IMG/VR virus record: IMGVR_UViG_3300017735_000002
DNA: 64,000 nt
Source of the DNA: a virus
Strand: one strand, 5' to 3'
Shown here: positions 14,143 to 42,122 of the stretch, piece by piece
How positions within the stretch are numbered: the stretch's first letter is position 1
Layout of the letters: the number at the start of each line of letters is the position of its first letter
Notes under the pieces: generated by a model
The model's database searches: none
Told to the model about the DNA's origin: nothing
What the model saw: the letters and a program-made list of their open reading frames with translations, nothing else
Made by a program: the position numbers and the translations under genes

Positions 14143-14535
14143 GTGGCAAAACGAAATCCATTCGACTTCGTTAAGTCGGTCTCTTACGACAAAAAAGATA
14201 TCATGGTTGATGATATCGAAGAGAAAGCATATCAACCTTTCCTAATCAATAAGGCATTATCTTACCACCAAGATGCAGTCTTTCTAGTAAACGAGATGAA
14301 CACCAGACATTCGACTGAGGGTCGTCTTCAATACTTGTTTTTCATAAATACTCTTAGAAAAAGGCAGAGATTTTCGAAATGGCATAAACCTTACGAGAGT
14401 AAGAAATTAGATACAGTGAAGAACGCCTTTGGTGTATCCTCACAACGAGCCAAAGAATATCTAGAACTTTTAAATGATAAACAGTATCGTGACTTGAAAG
14501 ACAGTATGAAAATTGGTGGAAAGAATAATGGATGA
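14143..14535 (+). CDS. gp62: clamp loader small subunit gp62
   Basis: NPFDFVKSV, YQPFLINKALS, LRKRQRFSKW; precedes regA. Confidence 0.9.
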   Translation: MAKRNPFDFVKSVSYDKKDIMVDDIEEKAYQPFLINKALSYHQDAVFLVNEMNTRHSTEGRLQYLFFINTLRKRQRFSKWHKPYESKKLDTVKNAFGVSSQRAKEYLELLNDKQYRDLKDSMKIGGKNNG

Positions 14536-14938
14536 CAATTTAGAATCAGTAAAAGATTTAGTAGAAATAACATTTCCTGAAAAGGACGACTTCTTAAAGA
14601 TAAGAGAAACCCTATCTAGAATTGGCGTAGCGTCAAGAAAAGAAAAAGAACTTTTTCAGTCATGTCACATACTACACAAAAGGGGCAAGTATTACATTGT
14701 CCACTTCAAAGAGTTATTCAAACTCGATGGTAAACAATCAAACTTTGACGAATCAGATGTTGCAAGGCGCAACACCATAATCGATTTATTGAGACAATGG
14801 AGTCTTGTCAAGGTACTTGACCCAAAGAGAATTGAAGAACCTAGAGCACCACTTTCTCAGATTAAGGTTATACCTTACAAAGAGAAACAACAGTGGAAAC
14901 TCACACAAAAGTACTCAATAGGCACTAACATATCATAA
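14528..14938 (+). CDS. regA: translational repressor RegA
   Basis: DDFLKIRETLSRIGVAS, QSCHILHKRGKYYIVHFKELF; start moved to 14528. Confidence 0.95.
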   Translation: MDDNLESVKDLVEITFPEKDDFLKIRETLSRIGVASRKEKELFQSCHILHKRGKYYIVHFKELFKLDGKQSNFDESDVARRNTIIDLLRQWSLVKVLDPKRIEEPRAPLSQIKVIPYKEKQQWKLTQKYSIGTNIS

Positions 14939-15558: not shown

Positions 15559-15583
15559 TTATTAGTCCTACCAGGACACGAAA

Positions 15584-15609
15584 GGGACTCGTTAGAGTCC
15601 CTTTTTTTT
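15584..15609 (+). terminator. Rho-independent terminator
   Basis: GGGACTC-GTTA-GAGTCCC then T8. Confidence 0.9.
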
Positions 15610-15632: not shown

Positions 15633-15640
15633 TATAAATA
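15633..15640 (+). promoter_or_regulatory. late promoter TATAAATA driving the curli module
   Basis: Exact T4 late consensus right after terminator, 5 nt before ATG 15646. Confidence 0.75.
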
Positions 15641-15645
15641 ACAGT

Positions 15646-15942
15646 ATGGAAGAGATTTTTAATCTAATAGGTGAAGTGGGTGCTCCGATTGCTGGTTCAG
15701 TAGTAATGGGGTTCTTTATATTCATAGTTATTAAACAGATACTTGAGGGTGTAGTTGATTCTATTTCCACACTTACAATGTTCTGTAAATCTTTAGAAAA
15801 TCGAGCAAGAACAATGTCTAACGAAATGATTAAGATAGATTTACTTGTATCAAGTGCTTTAGAGTTGAGACCAGACATAGAGAGAATTGCGAGAGCTGAA
15901 AACTTCATAGAAGATGATAAGCTCGATGTCAGGAGAGACTGA
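15646..15942 (+). CDS. small membrane protein (TM + amphipathic/coiled tail)
   Basis: EVGAPIAGSVVMGFFIFIVI; similar layout to next ORF. Confidence 0.75.
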   Translation: MEEIFNLIGEVGAPIAGSVVMGFFIFIVIKQILEGVVDSISTLTMFCKSLENRARTMSNEMIKIDLLVSSALELRPDIERIARAENFIEDDKLDVRRD

Positions 15943-16199
15943 TGGACATTGCACAATTAATCTCCGATTTCGGATTTCCCATTGTGATGGCAGTAGGACT
16001 CGGTTATTTCATATATTACATTTGGTGGTTTGTAGGTGAAAAACTAGAACCCGAAATTGAAAAAATGCACTTTCAATTAATTAAAGTAATAGACCAAACA
16101 AGAATGTTAGACCAAGACTTAATAAGACTACAACAAAAAGTAGATGTAGTTTTAGAGATGAAAGAGAATGCCAAAAAGGAAGAGGTGAAAAAGAAATGA
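15942..16199 (+). CDS. small membrane protein, probable paralog of upstream ORF
   Basis: DFGFPIVMAVGLGYFIYYIW then coiled tail. Confidence 0.75.
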   Translation: MDIAQLISDFGFPIVMAVGLGYFIYYIWWFVGEKLEPEIEKMHFQLIKVIDQTRMLDQDLIRLQQKVDVVLEMKENAKKEEVKKK

Positions 16200-16684
16200 A
16201 ATTATTACAAATCATATTCTTAGTTTCAGTATTCTGTATTAGCGAAAGCGTACAGGCTGATATAAAACATAAATTTAAAAACCCTAGTTTCAGTGGAATA
16301 GGCACAGCATCACATTACCTAACCGTTGAGAACCAAGAGTTTACAAGAAAAAAAGAAATAGAAGATGCACTTGAATCTGCTAGAAAGGCAGCTGAAAGGG
16401 CAGAAGACAATACAACCATGGCCAAATTTATTCGTAATTTAGAATCACGAATTTATGCTCAAATGGCAAAACAATTGGTTGAGTCTATGTTTTCGAATGA
16501 CGGTTCAGTTAGATTTGGTTCATTTAGTTTAGAGGGCAATGTTGTCACATATGAAGTAATGACTAACGAAGATGGTTCAGAATTTATACGAATGACAATT
16601 GTTGATTCCGATGGAACAGAAACAGTTATTGAGATACCAATCGGAACAGGAAACTTTGGACAAGACTCAGATGGAACTGGTTAA
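16196..16684 (+). CDS. csgF: curli assembly protein CsgF-like
   Basis: Signal peptide ..VQA, then HKFKNPSFSG; LESRIYAQMAKQL helix; precedes csgG. Confidence 0.85.
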   Translation: MKLLQIIFLVSVFCISESVQADIKHKFKNPSFSGIGTASHYLTVENQEFTRKKEIEDALESARKAAERAEDNTTMAKFIRNLESRIYAQMAKQLVESMFSNDGSVRFGSFSLEGNVVTYEVMTNEDGSEFIRMTIVDSDGTETVIEIPIGTGNFGQDSDGTG

Positions 16685-17636
16685 ATATTTACTCACCTGC
16701 GTACTTTTACTATCTGGATGTGCATCTGTTCCAAAGTGGTCAGACAACCCAGCAGATTGTGCCTATGAGACAGGAAGATTTGATGAGGGTTTCGGCAGAG
16801 ATGTTGTCACAGGTGTCGCAAAGGCATGGTCTAGAAATTACATATGTGTAGAAAATGCTACTGTAATTAATCTACCTTCACATTTAGAACTACTGAATTT
16901 GCCTAAGGCAAAAGAAAGACCTACTGTTGCAGTTTATAATTTTATAGATAAGACTGGTCAAAGAAAGGCAGAAGATAATCTCGCATCATTTTCTACTGCT
17001 GTGACACAAGGTGCAACCGAAATGGTTATTGATGCACTTAAAACGGCAGGTAAAGGAACATGGTTTAGAGTTGTTGAAAGACATGGCATAGACAACTTAG
17101 TAAGAGAGAGACAAATCATTCGTTCTGCTAGACAAGACTTTGCTAAACAACAAGGCGAAGACAAGTTTCAAAATTTACAACCCTTACTATTCGCAGGTAT
17201 GATAATAGAGGGTGGTATAATAGGTTATGATTCCAATTTATTAACTGGTGGTCGAGGCGCAAGGACACTAGGAATTGGAGTTAGTAGACAGTATCGTCAA
17301 GATGCTGTCACGGTTAGTATGAGAGCTGTTTCAGTTCTAACAGGTGAAGTATTATTGAATGTCCAAACAAGAAAGACTATCCTTTCTTATGGTTCAGGCG
17401 GCGATGTATTCCGATTCATTGAAGAAGGTACACAATTGCTAGAGTTCGAGGACGGAGTGGGTAATAATGAGTCAGTGACATATGCGGTACGAACAGCTAT
17501 TGAGGCTGCCGTACTGGAATTAATCTACCAAGGGCATGATAGGGGTTTTTGGAAAATAGAGGAAGGTCATAGACACCCACACAATAGTGATGGTGTAAAT
17601 GATTTACACTCAATAAAAGGAGAAGAAAATGAATAA
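16671..17636 (+). CDS. csgG: curli secretion channel CsgG
   Basis: Lipobox LSGC; VAVYNFIDKTGQRK, FRVVERHGIDNLVRERQIIRS, EGGIIGYDSN, LRAV-type MRAVSVLTGEVL; start moved to 16671. Confidence 0.93.
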   Translation: MELVKYLLTCVLLLSGCASVPKWSDNPADCAYETGRFDEGFGRDVVTGVAKAWSRNYICVENATVINLPSHLELLNLPKAKERPTVAVYNFIDKTGQRKAEDNLASFSTAVTQGATEMVIDALKTAGKGTWFRVVERHGIDNLVRERQIIRSARQDFAKQQGEDKFQNLQPLLFAGMIIEGGIIGYDSNLLTGGRGARTLGIGVSRQYRQDAVTVSMRAVSVLTGEVLLNVQTRKTILSYGSGGDVFRFIEEGTQLLEFEDGVGNNESVTYAVRTAIEAAVLELIYQGHDRGFWKIEEGHRHPHNSDGVNDLHSIKGEENE

Positions 17637-18363
17637 AATTTTAAGTATTTTATTACTAATGTCGACACCATTCGTTTTCGCAGCTGCAACTGATGATAAT
17701 GAGATTATGATAACACAAGTTGGTGATACTCTAAAATTATATGTTGACCAAGTTGGTTTTGGTAACAAAGTAGGACTAAACGACTTTTCAAGTGGTTCTG
17801 GTTCAAACATGACCATTACTGGTGTGACTTTGGATTTCAACATAGATATGATAGGTAACAAGAACTTGTTATTCGGACCTCTCGTTGCCGATACATCGAA
17901 CTACGCTATATCGATGACTGGTGATTCTAACGCTATTGACTGGAACATAGGTTCTACAGGTAGTTCAGATGATTCAGACATCAATTTCGCAATGACAGGC
18001 GATTCGAATACATTCGATATCGACCAAGGTGCTGTTGCAAGTGCAGAGAGATTAAATGCGGATTTAGTTCTCATTGGAAGTAGTAATGTTTTTGATATTG
18101 ATTGGGAATCAGATGATGTCACATGGAATTTCGATGTGACTGGTTCTAGTTCTAATTTCAATACATTGCAAAAAGATGGTTCACAAACACTTAATTTTGA
18201 TTTTACAGGAGACAGTGCTGATGTTGATATCACTCAGATATCAGGCACATGTGCAGCTTCTGGCGGAGGGTGTGCAACACCTAATGCAAATGTCAATCTT
18301 AATGTAAACAGTGACAATGCGATTATTCAGATTACACAAAAAGATTCCGGCAGCGATAGTTAG
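17629..18363 (+). CDS. curlin-like secreted beta-solenoid protein 1
   Basis: Signal peptide; repeated x-x-G-x-x-N turns (MIGNKN, MTGDSN x2, LIGSSN); ITQVGD/DQVG; C-terminal Cys pair. Confidence 0.75.
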   Translation: MNKILSILLLMSTPFVFAAATDDNEIMITQVGDTLKLYVDQVGFGNKVGLNDFSSGSGSNMTITGVTLDFNIDMIGNKNLLFGPLVADTSNYAISMTGDSNAIDWNIGSTGSSDDSDINFAMTGDSNTFDIDQGAVASAERLNADLVLIGSSNVFDIDWESDDVTWNFDVTGSSSNFNTLQKDGSQTLNFDFTGDSADVDITQISGTCAASGGGCATPNANVNLNVNSDNAIIQITQKDSGSDS

Positions 18364-19468
18364 TTTCTTTTTATTATTCGCTGGTGGGTTCAGCTGGGCT
18401 GAGCCCATTGGCGGTGTAATTGAATCTACAGGTGTCACATCTGTAAAAAGAGAGCAGGACAGAATTCTAACAGATGTCGGTACAGACATCAACATGTATG
18501 ATGAAGCAGAGACTGCCAATGGGCGTATGCTCATACAATTTTTAGATAATGAAAAATTGAGTTTAACAGAAAACTCACTCGTTTACATAGACGAGGCATA
18601 TTACGACCCCGACCCAAGTTTATCCAAAATGTCAATACGAATGGCACGAGGCACAGCACGATTCGCCTCGGGTGGTGGTTCAAGAATTAAAAAACAAAAT
18701 GTAGATGTATCTACTCCTACAGCCAATATCACAATGAGAGGGACAGATTTTACAACCACCATTGATGAGTTGGGAAGGACTATGGTAATCTTACTTCCGG
18801 ATGAAGATACAGGTGAATCATCTGGAGAAATACTAGTTTATAATGACGGTGGTGAAGTTGTTTTAAATCAACCATATCAGGCAACTACTGTTGCATCGTT
18901 TGATTCATCACCAACTACAGCAGTCACGGTTCAAGGTATTACACCGAGTCTGATTGACAACATGTTCATCGTAAATCCGCCTTCGGAAATACGAAATGCG
19001 ATGGAAGAATCCTATCAAGATGAAAACTATGATGACCAAGGTCTATTAGATGTAGACTTCTTAGAGTTCAATGAACTTGAGGGAGATGCTTTGGCCGATA
19101 CGACTGAAGATTTATCATTTTCAGAGTTGGACATAGATTATTTGGATGTGGATTTTTTACAAGACTTATTAGATGTTATAGAAGAATTAGAGAGAACCAC
19201 GGTATCGTTAGGTTCCAAAAGTAGTTCGGGTACTGAATTAGCTGGGTTTGCACTTAAAGGTGCCTCACAAGGTTTCAACAAAGATTCTCAGTTTAATGTT
19301 TTCGAACAAGACGGAGACTTAGTTTTCTTTCGTGATGTCCAAGGAGTCATAAATATAATTATAACAAGTGGTGGTTCAGGTATTATAGATGCCGAAGTTC
19401 CAGGATACTCAGGTGTCATGACATTTGGAGATGGAGATGGAATTACAATTGTTATACGACAAGATTAA
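18317..19468 (+). CDS. FecR-domain secreted/periplasmic protein
   Basis: Signal peptide ..FSWA; TANGRMLIQFLD, STPTANITMRGTDF FecR pattern; acidic linker; start moved to ATG 18317. Confidence 0.8.
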   Translation: MRLFRLHKKIPAAIVSFFLLFAGGFSWAEPIGGVIESTGVTSVKREQDRILTDVGTDINMYDEAETANGRMLIQFLDNEKLSLTENSLVYIDEAYYDPDPSLSKMSIRMARGTARFASGGGSRIKKQNVDVSTPTANITMRGTDFTTTIDELGRTMVILLPDEDTGESSGEILVYNDGGEVVLNQPYQATTVASFDSSPTTAVTVQGITPSLIDNMFIVNPPSEIRNAMEESYQDENYDDQGLLDVDFLEFNELEGDALADTTEDLSFSELDIDYLDVDFLQDLLDVIEELERTTVSLGSKSSSGTELAGFALKGASQGFNKDSQFNVFEQDGDLVFFRDVQGVINIIITSGGSGIIDAEVPGYSGVMTFGDGDGITIVIRQD

Positions 19469-19478
19469 GGAGAGATTT

Positions 19479-19634
19479 ATGAGCATAAATATTGACTTTA
19501 CTAAACTAAGACAATGGCATGAAAACCTAACATGGGAAGTTGCCGACTATTTTGGTTTAGATGAATATGAAATGTTATGGGTGTCATACACCGAGGGATT
19601 AATTTTAGGATTATTATTATGGTGGATTTTTTAA
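19479..19634 (+). CDS. small membrane protein (51 aa)
   Basis: AGGAG RBS; C-terminal GLILGLLLWWIF. Confidence 0.65.
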   Translation: MSINIDFTKLRQWHENLTWEVADYFGLDEYEMLWVSYTEGLILGLLLWWIF

Positions 19635-20389
19635 ACAAATTAAAAAATAAATTTTACAAATACTGGATACTACCATGGGGTGCTTGTTATCTCATGGTAT
19701 TTCCTGTATACGCTGATGACAATGTTATATCTATTGAACAAAGCGGAGATAATTTTGAACTAGGTATAGAACAAATTGGTTTCGATAATGAAATTAAAAT
19801 GTTAGATGCTAATTCATATATTAATGCTTCTAGTCTAGGTGTGTATATGGTTCAATACAACATACACAATACATCATCAAGTTATACTTATCCCAACTCA
19901 ATTGTATTTGATGAGGTTAGTGGTACTGGTAACAAAATGAAACTTGGCCAAGGCATTACTTGGGATTCACTAGACTCCGAAACAAATTTAGATTGGAGTC
20001 ATGATGGTAGTGAAGGTGGCGGACACGAGATAGACATTACAATGTATGGCGACTATAACAAATTAGCAGTTCAACAAACAAATCAACATAATGCATGGGA
20101 TGGTCATAACTTTGATTTGCATTTAGCAGGTGACCATAACGAAGTTCAAATCAAACAACAAGGCAATGGTGTAAAAACTACAAACTTAACAATCTACAAT
20201 GATTATAACGATGTGTATGTCCGTCAGAAAGGAACTAGTGCAAATCACACTGCAAATATAACTCTTGATGGTTTATATGGAACAGACTTAACATTATTAC
20301 AATTTGGTACTAGTGGTACTCAGTCTTATACTATATCAGTCGATTGCATGACAGTCGGTGGTTGTAGTACATCGGTGACCCAACAATGA
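19619..20389 (+). CDS. curlin-like secreted beta-solenoid protein 2
   Basis: Signal-like N-terminus ..VYA; IEQSGD, IEQIG, MYGDYN, LAGDHN, KQQG, RQKG repeats; C-terminal Cys pair. Confidence 0.75.
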   Translation: MVDFLNKLKNKFYKYWILPWGACYLMVFPVYADDNVISIEQSGDNFELGIEQIGFDNEIKMLDANSYINASSLGVYMVQYNIHNTSSSYTYPNSIVFDEVSGTGNKMKLGQGITWDSLDSETNLDWSHDGSEGGGHEIDITMYGDYNKLAVQQTNQHNAWDGHNFDLHLAGDHNEVQIKQQGNGVKTTNLTIYNDYNDVYVRQKGTSANHTANITLDGLYGTDLTLLQFGTSGTQSYTISVDCMTVGGCSTSVTQQ

Positions 20390-20643
20390 GTGAATGTCCA
20401 CCTGAGTTTTACGAGTGTCTCACTGAAGAAGAGTATGACGACATATTAGAACTCTTTGAAGAGAACGATATGGTCATGCCTGAATCTTTGGGTGATGTAG
20501 AAGCTGCATCTGATTTCGTTTGGCAAGTTCTCTTCCTAACACCAATAGAACTTATTTACATAGGTTTTACAATGACTGTTCTCGCTACTTATGGACTGTC
20601 TATATACTATATCTATAAACGAATACAGAAGAAATTCTCATGA
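20386..20643 (+). CDS. small membrane protein, acidic N-terminus
   Basis: ATGA overlap; C-terminal TM LIYIGFTMTVLATYGLSIYYI. Confidence 0.7.
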   Translation: MSECPPEFYECLTEEEYDDILELFEENDMVMPESLGDVEAASDFVWQVLFLTPIELIYIGFTMTVLATYGLSIYYIYKRIQKKFS

Positions 20644-20741
20644 ACACAATCGACATGATACCGTATTCTTTTAAAAAAGACTTTATCTTAGTCTGTTCTT
20701 TAGGACTAAACATAGGTTTTATTATCGGTTTAATATTATGA
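20640..20741 (+). CDS. very small membrane protein (33 aa)
   Basis: ATGA overlaps at both ends; FILVCSLGLNIGFIIGLIL. Confidence 0.5.
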   Translation: MNTIDMIPYSFKKDFILVCSLGLNIGFIIGLIL

Positions 20742-20917
20742 ATGAAGCGAATCCATTTTCAAAAGATGCACGAGAAAGGACCATCGCAATGGTTAACGAA
20801 TATCGTAGAAAGAAAAAACAACAATGGTGGTCAAGTTTCTGGTCAACAGTTCTTGCAATATCACTCATTGGTGTTTGTCTATACATATTCTTTTTTGCGT
20901 GGCCCACAATTGAATAG
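20738..20917 (+). CDS. small membrane protein (59 aa)
   Basis: ATGA overlap; MNEANPFSKD...RRKKKQQWW + TM VLAISLIGVCLYIFFFAW; preferred over the track ORF 20742..20969. Confidence 0.6.
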   Translation: MNEANPFSKDARERTIAMVNEYRRKKKQQWWSSFWSTVLAISLIGVCLYIFFFAWPTIE

Positions 20918-20983
20918 TGCCACAAAACAGATACAGGAGATATCGACTACTCGAATGGAAAAAGGGTAACCTGATAGATATCT

Positions 20984-22822
20984 ATGTATAATTGGAAAAC
21001 TGTACTTATAACCATCGTTGCACTCGTGGGCATAAAGATATGGTCGCCTTATCTAATAGATAATGTTAGATGGTCTTACTTCGATGTTCTACATCAACAA
21101 AAAGAAAAAGTGATAGTAGATGACATACTACTGGTCAACATAGATGAAAAGGCAATAGAGAAGTACGGTCAATATCCTTTCCCTAGAGACATATACGCAG
21201 ATACATTATGGGAAACACATCACTCAAATACTCATGTATTCAATATACTATTCGCAGAAGAAGATAGATTCGGTGGTGATGAAGTCTTTGCAGAGGCACT
21301 AGAAAACAGATTAACGATATTATCATCAGCACCAACAATTCAAAAAGAATCAGGCAACGCACCATTTGTAAATACATCTGTATTCGGAGATGGTAATATA
21401 CAAGACCATGTATGGAACTTTTCAGGTTTAGTAAGTCCCCGAACCGAATTACAAAACTCAGCTTGGGGTATGGGCGTGACAGTTGCCACACCACCTGTGG
21501 CGAATACACCAAATTTTGACGGAACAAACAGAGCGATTCCGCTAGTCATCCAGGCAAATGGTCAATTATATCCAAGTTTAGGATTCGAAGTTCTCAGAGC
21601 ATACTATGACCAACCCAATTATCAAACTAGGGTAACTGCTGATGCAGGTATTGAATGGGTTAAAATGGGAAGAGACAAACCAATAGAGACCACATCAAGT
21701 GCAGACTTGATGATTTCGTATTGGAACGAATTCGAATCTATCTCATTTGCAGACTTGCAAGATTCTGATATAGAAGGAAAGATTCTAGTCTATGGACTAA
21801 CCGCTGAGGGGTTATCTATTCCAGTTTCAACCCCAATGGGTGTAATGTATCCTCACGAAGTTCAAGCACACCTAATCCAAACCGTTTCGTCAGGAGTTCA
21901 AATACATGTATCCGAGACTCTTGAAATGCTCGAGACTTTTCTTCTTCTGTTAGTCCTTCTAGGAATACTGGTATCGGTCTACAAACTTCCCACAGCCTTC
22001 TCGGCGATAGTCTCTGTAGGGTTCGTTTTACTTCAGGTGGGGTTAAGTCACTATTTGTGGTTTTACAATCTCGTTCTTTTCGATATCTTCTGGTCATCGT
22101 TAAGCTCCGTTGTTGTTTTCGGACACGCTTCTTTTAACCAATACTATACTACTTACCAACTCAAAGAACAAATTAAGAAGCAGTTCCAAAAGTATTTATC
22201 TCCTGACATGATTGAAGAACTACAAAAAGACCCAAGTAAACTTAGACTTGGCGGAGATAGAAGAGAGATGACTTTCATGTTTATGGACATAATCGGATTC
22301 ACTCCCATAAGCGAACACTATATGCAGAAAGATGATCCAGAAGGTTTAGTAGAACTCATTAATAAGTTTTTAGATATGCAAACTAAAATCATACTAAATA
22401 ATAGTGGAACCATAGATAAGTATATGGGGGATTGCATAATGAGTTTTTGGAATGCACCACTTGATTGTGAAAACCACGCAGACCTTGCCGTAAAATCAGC
22501 ACTAGAAGTCCTAGATGCAACAAAGGAATTAAATGAAGAACTTAAACCTCTTAACCTGCCTCCTATTAATGTGGGCATCGGTATCAGTTCAGGCGAATGT
22601 ATTGTCGGAAACATGGGTTCCGAACTTAGATTTGACTATTCCGTCATCGGAGATGCCGTCAACTTGGGCGCTAGACTCGAAGGCCAAACAAGAAATTATA
22701 ATGGGGTGGACTTGTTGTTATCAGAAAGAACTTATCAACTATGTCCAGACAGAGCATTCACTAGAGTTGATAGAATTACAGTTAAAGGAAAATCAGAACA
22801 AGTCACAATTTACACTATCTGA
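20984..22822 (+). CDS. CHASE2-domain class III adenylate cyclase
   Basis: CHASE2 (LLVNIDEKAIEKYGQYPFPRD, GVMYPHEVQA), TM helices, cyclase motifs FMDIIGFT, DKYMGD, RFDYSVIGDAVNLGARLE; K and D residues indicate ATP specificity. Confidence 0.92.
   Translation: MYNWKTVLITIVALVGIKIWSPYLIDNVRWSYFDVLHQQKEKVIVDDILLVNIDEKAIEKYGQYPFPRDIYADTLWETHHSNTHVFNILFAEEDRFGGDEVFAEALENRLTILSSAPTIQKESGNAPFVNTSVFGDGNIQDHVWNFSGLVSPRTELQNSAWGMGVTVATPPVANTPNFDGTNRAIPLVIQANGQLYPSLGFEVLRAYYDQPNYQTRVTADAGIEWVKMGRDKPIETTSSADLMISYWNEFESISFADLQDSDIEGKILVYGLTAEGLSIPVSTPMGVMYPHEVQAHLIQTVSSGVQIHVSETLEMLETFLLLLVLLGILVSVYKLPTAFSAIVSVGFVLLQVGLSHYLWFYNLVLFDIFWSSLSSVVVFGHASFNQYYTTYQLKEQIKKQFQKYLSPDMIEELQKDPSKLRLGGDRREMTFMFMDIIGFTPISEHYMQKDDPEGLVELINKFLDMQTKIILNNSGTIDKYMGDCIMSFWNAPLDCENHADLAVKSALEVLDATKELNEELKPLNLPPINVGIGISSGECIVGNMGSELRFDYSVIGDAVNLGARLEGQTRNYNGVDLLLSERTYQLCPDRAFTRVDRITVKGKSEQVTIYTI
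21816..22097 (-). CDS. possible nested antisense ORF (93 aa)
   Basis: GGAG 7 nt upstream of ATG on minus strand; wholly inside cyclase gene; no recognisable family. Confidence 0.25.
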   Translation of the reverse strand: MTRRYRKERDCKTTNSDLTPPEVKRTLQRLSPRRLWEVCRPIPVFLEGLTEEEKSRAFQESRIHVFELLTKRFGLGVLELREDTLHPLGLKLE

Positions 22823-23126
22823 CCCAATCACAACTAAGCAGTGGATTACATTTACCACACTACAACTTGCAGATATCTATACAACTTATCGTGGACTTAA
22901 ATACAATTGTGTTTATGAAATAAATCCAATTGTTGGTGAACAACCATCAGTACCACAAATGTTTCTTGTTAAAACACTTGTTCTCATACCTGCAATCAAT
23001 TCTGATATAGAACGACAGACTCTAGAACCAAAAACTATGAATAATATAAATCTTTTAATGGCATTAGTTGTAGGCAACAACTACAATGTATGGCACAGAG
23101 CAGAAAAAAACTGTGGAAGAAGATGA
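22533..23126 (+). CDS. secreted/membrane protein overprinted on cyclase 3' end (DUF5658-like C-terminus)
   Basis: AAGGA RBS; signal peptide MKNLNLLTCLLLMWASVSVQA; C-domain LQLADIYTTYRGL..EINPIV. Confidence 0.7.
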   Translation: MKNLNLLTCLLLMWASVSVQANVLSETWVPNLDLTIPSSEMPSTWALDSKAKQEIIMGWTCCYQKELINYVQTEHSLELIELQLKENQNKSQFTLSDPITTKQWITFTTLQLADIYTTYRGLKYNCVYEINPIVGEQPSVPQMFLVKTLVLIPAINSDIERQTLEPKTMNNINLLMALVVGNNYNVWHRAEKNCGRR

Positions 23127-23890
23127 TAATAATAACTGGTACAAAAAAAGATAACAGAGTATCTTTTCTTGTATACAATGATAATTTTGAACTACAATTG
23201 GTCAAACCCTACACTCCTGAATTAGATGACTTGTCAGTTGAAGGAATGAAATCAGGCAAAAACACCAGACCAACCTTTAGACCCTTTGGCATAACTTATG
23301 ATGAAGATAATATTTACATTGCAAATCATACTAAAATAGGTATCTACGATATCAATGATTACACATTCAAAGGTCTATTACCTATTACTAGTTTTTTTAA
23401 CACGCATCAAATATTAAAGAAAGACAATATCATGTATGTTGCGAATACACACGAAAACTCAATTGGTATACATAATTTAGATGACGGCAGTTCATTCTTT
23501 AAAGTTCTTCCTAAAAAATCTCATTGCAACAGTCTATTTTTTAAAGATGAGTTATACTATGTATTTCACAATAGAAATCTAAAACCATCTGAGTTTTATA
23601 GAGGAGATACTAAGATAAAGGAATTAGGAAGAAAATGTCATAACATAATTGTTGATGAACATTTCTATACTATTGATACAGGTGCCTATGAACTAGTCAT
23701 TGATGACGATAGATATTTCATTAATAAGGGTTTCTGTAGAGGTTTAGCAAAAAGAAATGGAAAACTTTTAGTTGGCAATAACGAAGGAGATGTTGCGTCT
23801 GTTTTTGTTTTTGATATAGAAAATAGAGTATTTGATAATCAAATAAATATAGAACACCTAGATAAAATTACAGATATAAAATGCATTTAG
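23123..23890 (+). CDS. beta-propeller-like protein
   Basis: Repeats PFGITYDEDNIYIAN, HQILKKDNIMYVAN, HCNSLFF, CRGLAKRNGKLLVG; ATGA overlap; start moved to 23123. Confidence 0.6.
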   Translation: MIIITGTKKDNRVSFLVYNDNFELQLVKPYTPELDDLSVEGMKSGKNTRPTFRPFGITYDEDNIYIANHTKIGIYDINDYTFKGLLPITSFFNTHQILKKDNIMYVANTHENSIGIHNLDDGSSFFKVLPKKSHCNSLFFKDELYYVFHNRNLKPSEFYRGDTKIKELGRKCHNIIVDEHFYTIDTGAYELVIDDDRYFINKGFCRGLAKRNGKLLVGNNEGDVASVFVFDIENRVFDNQINIEHLDKITDIKCI

Positions 23891-24519
23891 ATAAAATATT
23901 TTACACTCCTTTTCTGAGTCATAAATTTCCAGATAACACTGAGTTAAACAAAAACTTGATTGATGAAATTGAACAAGAAAAACTCCTTGCGCCAGATGGT
24001 GACACACGAAGTTTTGCTTCTACACCCAATAACACTTGGCAATCGAACACTAAGATGCAACATACTTATCATAGTTTTAGAGCTTTAACTCGTCAGATAG
24101 ACGATTTACTCCTAGAAGAAGAGATGCAAGTATCAGCCTGTTGGGCTAATCTTATACATGGAGCTGGTGGATTTTCTTTTCCACATACTCATAACAGTAA
24201 AAAAAACGAAATAAGGGGTTCGGTTTCTACCAAAATGACTGCTGTATATTTTCCAAAGGGTCTAGTAGAAAAAGATAATTTCATGAAAAGTAGATATAGT
24301 AAAGACGAGGGAGATTTAATTCTCTTTTCTCCAAACTTTGCATATAAAAATTCTCATACTGATGTTTTAAGTATAAGTGTAGTAGAATCTTTATTGGTTT
24401 TATTTCCCAATAATATAACACATATGGTTAAACCTATGCAGACAAATACAAAAAGATATTCTATAGTTTTTACACTTTCTACACCTAAACAAAAGGGAAA
24501 ATATGAATCGCTTTTCTAA
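23881..24519 (+). CDS. 2OG-Fe(II) oxygenase (TIGR02466-like)
   Basis: WANL..FPHTH, AVYFP, LVLFPNNITHMVKP, RYSIVF. Confidence 0.75.
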   Translation: MHLDKIFYTPFLSHKFPDNTELNKNLIDEIEQEKLLAPDGDTRSFASTPNNTWQSNTKMQHTYHSFRALTRQIDDLLLEEEMQVSACWANLIHGAGGFSFPHTHNSKKNEIRGSVSTKMTAVYFPKGLVEKDNFMKSRYSKDEGDLILFSPNFAYKNSHTDVLSISVVESLLVLFPNNITHMVKPMQTNTKRYSIVFTLSTPKQKGKYESLF

Positions 24520-25195
24520 AAATACTTCAGAAATAGATGCCGTTGTTGCATTTTCTGGCGGAGTGGAATCTACATCACTTCTACAATATCTTTGTGATAA
24601 CAAATTAAAAGTGGCTGCAATATACAGTCATTATCCTGCAAGAAAAAAAACAATTCAAGCTAATCGTCTTCCCAATCATTTAGAACTAATATGTAAACTA
24701 CTTGATGTTGACTTTATAACACATACTCATGAACATTATACCAAATATCGTGATGTCGAAACTTCTTTTTATTCTACAAGACATTGGTTATTAGCAATGT
24801 GTAATGCATCATTGAGATTTTCAAAAGTTAAAAATTTCTATTGGGGAGCAAATAGTGGTATGTTAGAGTTCAATGATGGATTAGGAGACTGTTCTATAGT
24901 CGACCCTACAAAGTATCAGGTTCAAAATGTATTTGAGGCATTACAGAACATACCCCAAAAAGTAAAAGGATATCATGATGCAGATGCAAAACATCATGAC
25001 GGAAGTTATAAACATTCTTTTGATTGGCCAATCAAACAAACAATATCAGCACCACTAATAGGTTGGACAAAAAAACAGCAATGGGATTATATAAGAGATG
25101 ATATAAAACCATTAGTTCAAAGTTGTATACATTTTACTAATTGTGGTAAATGTATGAAATGCGAAGAATTTGAATTATTAAATGTCACTGAATAA
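24503..25195 (+). CDS. QueC-like PP-loop ATPase
   Basis: VVAFSGGVES PP-loop; APLIGWTK; C-terminal C-x4-CGKC-x2-C zinc cluster. Confidence 0.75.
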   Translation: MNRFSKNTSEIDAVVAFSGGVESTSLLQYLCDNKLKVAAIYSHYPARKKTIQANRLPNHLELICKLLDVDFITHTHEHYTKYRDVETSFYSTRHWLLAMCNASLRFSKVKNFYWGANSGMLEFNDGLGDCSIVDPTKYQVQNVFEALQNIPQKVKGYHDADAKHHDGSYKHSFDWPIKQTISAPLIGWTKKQQWDYIRDDIKPLVQSCIHFTNCGKCMKCEEFELLNVTE

Positions 25196-42114: not shown

Positions 42115-42122
42115 TATAAATA
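42115..42122 (+). promoter_or_regulatory. late promoter TATAAATA
   Basis: Exact T4 consensus; further copies ACTAAATA 42302, CATAAATA 42804. Confidence 0.7.

Follow-up and report, generated by a model that had tools for sequence, protein, structure and literature searches.

A marine phage cassette linking type VIII secretion genes to a FecR-domain protein and a CHASE2 adenylate cyclase behind a late promoter

Introduction

Why would a phage carry a curli-type secretion channel together with a FecR-domain protein and an adenylate cyclase? The question is raised by positions 15,633 to 23,126 of a 64,000-nucleotide (nt) window, the whole stretch of DNA analysed here, from IMG/VR record IMGVR_UViG_3300017735_000002. 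The source is a 114-kb viral contig of about 36% GC (guanine plus cytosine) whose genes are all on one strand, and the carrier is an uncultivated T4-like marine phage. The cassette encodes CsgF and CsgG, which belong to a type VIII secretion system (T8SS), two secreted curlin-like proteins that we call Cur1 and Cur2, a FecR-domain protein and a CHASE2 class III adenylate cyclase, preceded by two small membrane proteins, sA and sB. From co-inheritance and domain logic, we give an even chance to the reading that this unit is expressed late, secretes a fibre and passes its state through FecR to the cyclase.

Published accounts already cover this cassette, FecR and the cyclase included, so that it is not a new find. 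The annotations of Pelagibacter phage HTVC008M and Methylophilales phage Melnitz contain it, and three studies bear out the statement of a first-pass annotation of this DNA that csgF and csgG occur in marine myophages. The curli operon of pelagimyophages is the subject of Zaragoza-Solas et al. 2020 (PMC7029224), who suggested that it serves uptake or 'sibling capture'. Buchholz et al. 2022 (PMC9004378) proposed lysis timing. Wittmers et al. 2022 (PMC9599517) reported the order HK-CsgF-CsgG-CsgA/B-FecR-CsgA/B-adenylate cyclase in podophages and myophages, with an ocean-wide distribution (every surveyed ocean station), metatranscriptome matches and an alphaproteobacterial affinity. To the published module we add a cellular counterpart of the whole operon, which offers a tractable experimental route; complete linkage of FecR and the cyclase in related loci with enough flank; a second curlin that is hypervariable and exchangeable as a cassette, a pattern that suggests a surface role, exposed and under selection; and apparent expression as a leaderless late transcript. 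The hosts of these SAR11/OM43-type phages are among the ocean's most abundant bacteria, and what the cassette does bears on how infected cells behave, be it in aggregation, protection from other phages or nutrient signalling.

Results

FecR and the cyclase are linked to the secretion genes in every related locus with enough flank

Where a related locus extends at least 6 kb past csgG on the downstream side, FecR and the cyclase were always present (36 of 36 each), and Cur1 and Cur2 nearly always (35 of 36 each). These loci are mostly close relatives and so not independent; HTVC008M, Melnitz and two distant contigs agree with them. The first-pass annotation, made from the sequence alone, had named a FecR/cyclase pair unlinked from csgFG as a finding that would overturn its reading, and the pair was linked to csgFG in these 36 loci, in HTVC008M and Melnitz, and on one bacterial chromosome described below. 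The gene order places the cassette with the pelagiphage-type viral T8SS, since it is the order of HTVC008M, Melnitz and all 36 related loci.

The cassette genes all lie on the plus strand, from the terminator to about 23.1 kb. As the first-pass annotation had indicated, start and stop codons overlap at most junctions (by 1–53 nt), the exception being a 66-nt gap before the cyclase, and most of the genes are coupled in translation. Its calls of a strong terminator, two small membrane paralogs, CsgF, CsgG with a lipobox, a FecR-domain protein, four tiny membrane open reading frames (ORFs) and an intact CHASE2-transmembrane-adenylate cyclase, and its remark that no CsgE-like gene was recognised, likewise agree with the analyses below and in Table 1. 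Its promoter and its curlin-like solenoids stood in part.

A conserved late promoter abuts the first start codon

Of 59 distinct regions upstream of sA, 55 contain NATAAATA, and in most of them the octamer lies at the same distance, ending 5 nt before the ATG. Across the window, NATAAATA is strand-biased, with 19 copies on the plus strand and 2 on the minus strand, and NATAAATA-N5-ATG heads long ORFs at five sites (5843, 15633, 33487, 45341 and 53650). Two further NATAAATA sites, at 42115 and 48475, have N7–8 spacing before the ATG of long ORFs. The exact octamer TATAAATA occurs five times in the window, which is not above chance. The late-promoter call is thus based on octamer conservation and strand bias and not on the exact count, and it is in this form that the exact promoter of the first-pass annotation holds. 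The cassette has the features of a T4-type late unit, a conserved (T/N)ATAAATA octamer at −10 on the coding strand.

With the T4 spacing that we presume to apply here, the predicted transcription start falls at about the A of the sA ATG. Because the octamer ends 5 nt before the ATG, its position implies that the cassette mRNA would be a leaderless late transcript. Additionally, the promoter pattern across the window suggests that leaderless, or nearly leaderless, late mRNAs may be the rule in this phage. Ahead of the promoter, the terminator hairpin folds with a free energy of −17.7 kcal/mol (z −4.71; none of 200 shuffled sequences folded equally well), and a hairpin with a T-run is kept at this place in most relatives despite differing sequence.

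CsgF and CsgG form the secretion set, and CsgE is absent

The CsgF homolog aligns to the type VIII secretion family PF10614 from profile position 4 and carries an FxNPxFxG-type motif after its signal peptide. We take this motif to resemble the N-terminal segment with which E. coli CsgF plugs CsgG. A phmmer search of CsgF against solved structures gave no CsgF match. CsgG belongs to the lipoprotein channel family of type VIII secretion, and E. coli CsgG structures match it at 5e-49 over residues 93–322. Its start is the ATG at 16671 and not position 16599. Directly after the lipid anchor (residues ~17–65; window 16720–16860) it has a clade-specific insertion of about 45 amino acids (aa) with two cysteines, which is absent from the CsgG of HTVC008M and Melnitz in the alignment and also from that of the Henriciella-like bacterium introduced below.

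A search for CsgE (PF10627) gave no match anywhere in the 114-kb contig, while the E. coli control was positive. The lack of a CsgE-like gate, and the fact that CsgG forms a channel, are the points in favour of an open outer-membrane pore that raises uptake of nutrients or small macromolecules during infection (PMC7029224). Such a pore would leave CsgF, the two conserved signal-peptide curlin-like proteins, FecR and the cyclase unexplained, although all of them are strictly retained, and we consider it the most improbable of the explanations weighed here.

Cur1 is a predicted beta-solenoid and its paralog Cur2 is hypervariable

Both curlin-like proteins carry Sec-type signal peptides, which argue against their being parts of a virion fibre. 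Repeat units of the form xTGDSNxFDxDQ are visible in the Cur1 alignment. Its AlphaFold2 model is all-beta (predicted local distance difference test (pLDDT) 78, predicted template modelling score 0.73), and VIA-align superposed it on parallel beta-helix proteins with Z 16.6 and a root-mean-square deviation (rmsd) of 3.1 Å over 198 residues, the lower rows being only beta-helices. A Foldseek search of the model against the PDB and the Swiss-Prot part of AFDB returned nothing significant, with generic beta-helix and amyloid rows only. Cur1 is thus predicted by modelling to be a beta-solenoid. A hidden Markov model (HMM) of Cur1 matches Cur2 at 2e-14 among 224 window ORFs, and we therefore regard the two as paralogs. 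We also considered whether the C-terminus of FecR is a curlin repeat or a terminal signal shared with the curlin-like proteins. This was rejected statistically, as the Cur1 HMM scored it at noise level (E 3.6–7.7) among the same ORFs; a short curlin-like motif there is possible.

Cur2 is a hypervariable, recombining cassette. The protein is only 37% identical to its counterparts in phages that are 92–100% identical in every other gene, and nucleotide identity to near-identical phages drops from 93–100% to 22–60% exactly over 19600–20400 and then recovers. Clustering at 60% identity divides the Cur2 proteins of 57 loci into 13 clusters, against 3 for Cur1. Divergence of Cur2 is coupled less tightly to that of the backbone (r 0.50) than is divergence of Cur1 (r 0.85), and similar Cur2 alleles are present on some divergent backbones. 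This pattern is as expected of an exposed component and points to diversifying or frequency-dependent selection, with relaxed constraint as the alternative.

FecR is periplasmic and the cyclase has a complete catalytic set

In the model of the FecR protein, residues 30–210 are predicted with a pLDDT of about 85, and the acidic C-terminal half is of low confidence. The best fold match is the C-terminal cell-surface signalling domain of PupR (6ovk; probability 1.00, rmsd 3.3 Å over 159 columns). Pfam gives PF04773 alone, with only a signal peptide ahead of the FecR domain, and no anti-sigma N-domain was found. Membership of the FecR-type anti-sigma factors was therefore rejected: the protein has neither the cytoplasmic anti-sigma domain nor the transmembrane (TM) helix, and of PupR only the periplasmic part is matched by its fold. 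More than 4000 viral metagenome proteins were among the matches listed in a FecR homology search, and these gave no bacterial context.

The cyclase has the topology of a CHASE2 receptor. TM helix 1 (7–25) is followed by a periplasmic CHASE2 domain, a TM cluster (315–380) and a cytoplasmic catalytic domain (428–608), with hydrophobic segments at 7–25, 315–333 and 337–355. Solved adenylate cyclases match it at up to 2.7e-34. Alignment to CyaB (3r5g) and 2w01 identified the metal-binding residues D435 and D483, the adenine-selecting K479 with its partner S553, and the transition-state residues N560 and R564. Among 43 viral and bacterial homologs, D435, K479, D483 and R564 are conserved in all 43, S553 in 40 and N560 in 41. 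The protein thus has the residues of a class III adenylate cyclase (two Asp, Lys with Asp, Thr or Ser, and Asn with Arg), and by these residues it looks active.

A same-order operon is found in Henriciella-like bacteria

The closest bacterial CsgG (54% identity) is encoded on a 397-kb contig of a metagenome-assembled genome (MAG) from a marine Henriciella-like member of the Hyphomonadaceae. Its operon runs csgF, csgG, a 504-aa curlin-like gene, a signal-peptide FecR gene and a CHASE2 class III cyclase gene, with overlapping junctions. The operon has the 52% GC of its flanks, and the neighbouring genes encode an FAA hydrolase, an ALO oxidase and a 2-oxoglutarate (2OG) oxygenase. A sister species has the same locus and flank, so that 2 of 262 genomes of the family carry it, and these carriers encode proteins that bind cyclic nucleotide monophosphates (cNMP). 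A quick maximum-likelihood tree places the pair of bacterial cyclases as sister group to the whole set of 17 phage cyclases (support 100 in the Shimodaira–Hasegawa-like approximate likelihood ratio test, SH-aLRT; phage clade 99), and thirty other alphaproteobacterial CHASE2 cyclases fall outside this group. In the CsgG tree, the phages and the Henriciella-like bacterium form one clade (SH-aLRT 97) against 63 other bacterial CsgGs, in which the branch of the bacterium is long and phage monophyly is not resolved.

The Henriciella-like operon and both trees indicate that the coupling of T8SS, FecR and cyclase is not a viral invention. Most likely the phage unit came as one block from an alphaproteobacterial operon with this gene order, or the two go back to a common ancestral block, and the old transfer may have run in either direction. 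Separately, cassette contigs with phage neighbours (RegA and others) have been binned as Synechococcus, Rhodobacterales, Sphingobacteriales, Flavobacteriales, Saprospirales, Polynucleobacter and Pirellulales MAGs. These are mis-binned phage and would mislead any inference of host or origin.

FecR/CHASE2-cyclase pairs are common in Alphaproteobacteria. Of 401 sampled genomes, 92 had FecR-domain matches and 147 had CHASE2-cyclase matches, and by hand count at least 22 had one of each no more than 3 kb apart, in keeping with the background on which the first-pass annotation had drawn. Pairs of a FecR-domain protein and a CHASE2 sensor have been described in S. meliloti, in which SMc02177 (FecR-domain) stands beside CyaD1 and removal of CHASE2 makes the cyclase constitutive (PMC5498481), and in Burkholderia, in which a LysM-FecR operon includes a CHASE2 histidine kinase (PMC5192318). 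Podophage cassettes without a cyclase still have FecR together with the T8SS (PMC9599517). Because FecR is found with the T8SS without a cyclase and with CHASE2 sensors without a T8SS, it fits the part of an adaptor between the two.

The same surveys bear on the alternative that two separate cargoes travel together, a T8SS that makes a fibre or coat and an independent FecR/CHASE2 cyclase that acts as a host-takeover sensor. The fibre would serve aggregation ('sibling capture') or superinfection exclusion, and the cyclase would reset host metabolism through cyclic AMP (cAMP). FecR/CHASE2 cyclase pairs are widespread without a T8SS, within 10 kb of most bacterial csgG loci there is neither FecR nor cyclase, the variability and recombination of Cur2 are what an exposed surface component under diversifying selection would show, and the aggregation idea is published (PMC7029224). 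Separate cargoes do not, however, account for the linkage and order, which are strict in every phage lineage examined and also in the Henriciella-like operon, nor for the retention of FecR in the podophages, and aggregation finds no echo in Melnitz. We consider this alternative, in both its parts, unlikely.

A proposed route from the cell surface to cAMP

How might the parts work together? In the reading that we favour, the late promoter would yield a single polycistronic late mRNA without a leader. CsgG, as a lipoprotein pore, would then be placed with CsgF in the outer membrane by the Sec and Lol pathways of the host. Cur1 and Cur2, as Sec-exported beta-solenoids, would be the cargo of this pore and form a surface fibre or coat. 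Periplasmic FecR would act as the adaptor from the secretion apparatus or envelope state to the periplasmic CHASE2 domain of the inner-membrane cyclase, which would make cAMP in the infected cell.

The first-pass annotation had described the locus as one surface-sensing unit. What stands of this is a co-inherited, co-oriented unit headed by a late promoter and with complete linkage; fibre assembly, contact of FecR with CHASE2 or CsgG, the outside-in direction of signalling and any effect of cAMP are what we infer from it, and the surface-sensing reading is plausible. Several observations count against our proposal. Of the two signal-peptide curlin-like solenoids named in the first pass, the signal peptides of both and the beta-helix model of Cur1 are supported, but the Curlin_rpt matches are marginal when set against the 20.7-bit cut-off, with Cur1 below it (Table 1), and the Cur1 model resembles generic parallel beta-helices and not CsgA specifically. 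No clumping was seen in Melnitz-infected cultures (PMC9004378), and in S. meliloti the FecR-domain neighbour of CyaD1 is dispensable for signal perception (PMC5498481). The 114-kb phage contig encodes no cNMP-binding protein. Complex prediction for FecR (31–215) and CHASE2 (26–314) gave a score of 0.00, which speaks neither for nor against binding. Lastly, contigs at least 99% identical span the cassette in four RNA-seq runs from three studies, but these are assembled contigs, for which DNA carry-over is possible, and they give presence and not transcript ends, strand or level.

A bolder form of the proposal, which we hold to be distinctly unlikely, is that fibre or pore, FecR adaptor and CHASE2 cyclase act as one pathway that signals across the envelope, a kind of cell-surface signalling that would be new. 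Its antenna would, at the same low likelihood, be the secreted beta-solenoid fibre or the loading state of the CsgG pore, and its output cAMP. If true, a trans-envelope pathway would be common to a rare alphaproteobacterial lineage and abundant ocean phages, and hypervariable Cur2 would be its point of contact with the surroundings of the cell.

Phage-only components and the setting of the cassette

The coordinates of all features are collected in Table 1.

Table 1. Features of the cassette, in window coordinates
Feature	Position	Strand	Description
Intrinsic terminator	15580–15609	+	11-bp stem (15580–15605), 4-nt loop, U8; ends the upstream replication/RegA block
T4-type late promoter octamer TATAAATA	15633–15640	+	last base 5 nt before the sA ATG
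sA	15646–15942	+	98 aa, single-pass membrane protein; phrog_18771 at 2.6e-24; TM helix 11–29
sB	15942–16199	+	85 aa, sA paralog; phrog_18771 at 8.6e-25; ATGA overlap with sA
CsgF homolog	16196–16684	+	signal peptide; PF10614 at 1.6e-13 (profile positions 4–132); phrog_35372 at 8.7e-37
CsgG outer-membrane channel lipoprotein	16671–17636	+	PF03783 at 1.7e-54; lipobox LLLSGC
Cur1, conserved secreted curlin-like repeat protein	17629–18363	+	Curlin_rpt 19.8 bits; Sec-type signal peptide
Periplasmic FecR-fold protein	18317–19468	+	PF04773 at 1.3e-9; signal peptide; FecR domain ~30–210
Tiny tail-anchored membrane ORF	19479–19634	+	51 aa from ATG 19479; frame open from 19425
Cur2, second secreted curlin-like protein	19619–20389	+	Curlin_rpt 22.4 bits; Sec-type signal peptide
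Tiny membrane ORF, 85 aa	20386–20643	+	ATGA-coupled; one TM helix
Tiny membrane ORF, 33 aa	20640–20741	+	ATGA-coupled; one TM helix
Tiny membrane ORF, 59 aa	20738–20917	+	ATGA-coupled; one TM helix
CHASE2 class III adenylate cyclase	20984–22822	+	CHASE2 (PF05226) at 2.3e-29, residues 11–325; Guanylate_cyc at 3e-18
Signal-peptide protein, 197 aa	22533–23126	+	first ~97 codons within the cyclase 3' end, +1 frame, 290-nt overlap

Only the phages have sA, sB, the tiny ORFs and the downstream gene that overlaps the cyclase. sA and sB, each with one N-terminal TM helix, are present in 89 of 92 loci that have upstream flank. Neither has a Pfam family at E ≤ 0.1, the Atlas neighbours of sA are all viral hypothetical proteins without a Pfam family, and phrog_18771, their sole family beyond a weak N-terminal match to holin phrog_4898 (sA 1.7e-3), has no assigned function. 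The tiny ORFs vary among relatives. That at 19479–19634 was detected in 21 related loci at 30–99% identity and has no family match; those of 85, 33 and 59 aa were found in 16, 2 and 9 related loci, respectively, and match no family in Pfam or PHROGs. The signal-peptide protein at the 3' end of the cyclase has a weak DUF5658 match. An equivalent (ATG start, 191–209 aa, same frame, 290–314 nt overlap) has been retained in 31 loci with cyclases of only 48–98% identity, and it is probably a real overprinted gene, the last of the cassette.

The small proteins that PMC9599517 labels 'HK' (histidine kinase) show no kinase signature here in Pfam, PHROGs or Atlas neighbours, and that identity finds no support for sA and sB, proteins of 85–98 aa with one TM helix. 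This bears on a further alternative, proposed in the same study, in which regulation runs inside-out and cAMP, FecR and the small proteins control the making of the fibre or the timing of its secretion. Influence of cAMP-CRP on csgD in E. coli (cited in PMC9599517) lends it support, and the cNMP-binding proteins of the Henriciella-like carriers make transcriptional feedback possible in cells. In the phage, however, all genes share one operon and its late promoter, so that cAMP would have little scope to regulate transcription of the T8SS genes, the contig encodes neither CsgD nor a cNMP-binding protein, and the kinase label is unsupported. Inside-out regulation thus appears quite improbable.

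The cassette is located at the boundary of the replication module and a variable region, as described for pelagimyophages. Directly upstream (window 14143–14938) are genes for a T4-like clamp-loader small subunit and the RegA translational repressor, and downstream (23881–25195) are those for a 2OG-Fe(II) oxygenase and a QueC-like protein. Contig coverage in all four RNA-library runs ends at ~23.07–23.3 kb, and the next gene (23090–23890) is present in only one close relative. The coverage stop probably marks the border of a region that varies between strains, not the end of a transcript.

Lysis timing, in which an ungated CsgG/CsgF pore and holin-like sA and sB would act as a pinholin- or secretin-like permeabilisation device (PMC9004378), is consistent with late expression, with the missing CsgE gate and with the weak N-terminal similarity of sA and sB to holin PHROGs (~1e-3). 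The clamp loader, RegA, 2OG oxygenase and QueC-like neighbours do not favour it, however, and no endolysin or spanins flank the module. Two conserved secreted cargo proteins and a receptor cyclase would be needless for a lysis pore. Moreover, the homologous operon of bacteria is part of a chromosome and cannot serve a phage in lysis, and it lacks sA and sB. We regard lysis timing as very improbable.

Comparison with known systems

Relative to csgBAC/csgDEFG of E. coli, the phage cassette shares CsgG, CsgF and secreted repeats with a curlin-like xGxxNxxxxxQ rhythm. It differs in having no CsgE, CsgC or CsgD, in its marginal curlin matches, and in being a single operon coupled to FecR and a cyclase. 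Additionally, its carrier is a lytic phage, and the hosts of the known relatives of this phage have no curli genes.

With the FecR/PupR anti-sigma factors, the phage FecR shares the periplasmic fold (6ovk), a domain that in that family contacts an outer-membrane protein. It has a cleavable signal peptide in place of the TM helix and cytoplasmic anti-sigma domain of the PupR type, and, unlike TonB-dependent cell-surface signalling, the cassette includes no extracytoplasmic function (ECF) sigma factor or TonB-dependent transducer. The S. meliloti and Burkholderia pairs likewise place a signal-peptide FecR-domain gene beside a membrane sensor with a periplasmic CHASE2 domain. The output in S. meliloti is a class III adenylate cyclase, as in the phage, whereas that in Burkholderia is a kinase, and both pairs lack the T8SS of the phage cassette.

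The cassettes of HTVC008M, Melnitz, the pelagimyophage MAGs and the HTVC023P-type podophages have the same order of small membrane proteins, CsgF, CsgG, curlin, FecR, curlin and CHASE2 cyclase. The published phage cassettes occupy the same position after the replication genes, and they too have no CsgE, CsgC or CsgD. Amino-acid identity to the cultured phages is only 33–51%, and the present cassette differs in its extra tiny membrane ORFs between Cur2 and the cyclase, in the ~45-aa N-terminal insertion of CsgG and in the conserved gene that overlaps the cyclase 3' end. The Henriciella-like operon has one long (504 aa) curlin where the phage has two, and it is without sA and sB, the tiny ORFs and the overlapping downstream gene. 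At 39–54% protein identity it has the same five genes in the same order, with a similar N-terminal motif in CsgF, a lipoprotein CsgG and a FecR with a signal peptide.

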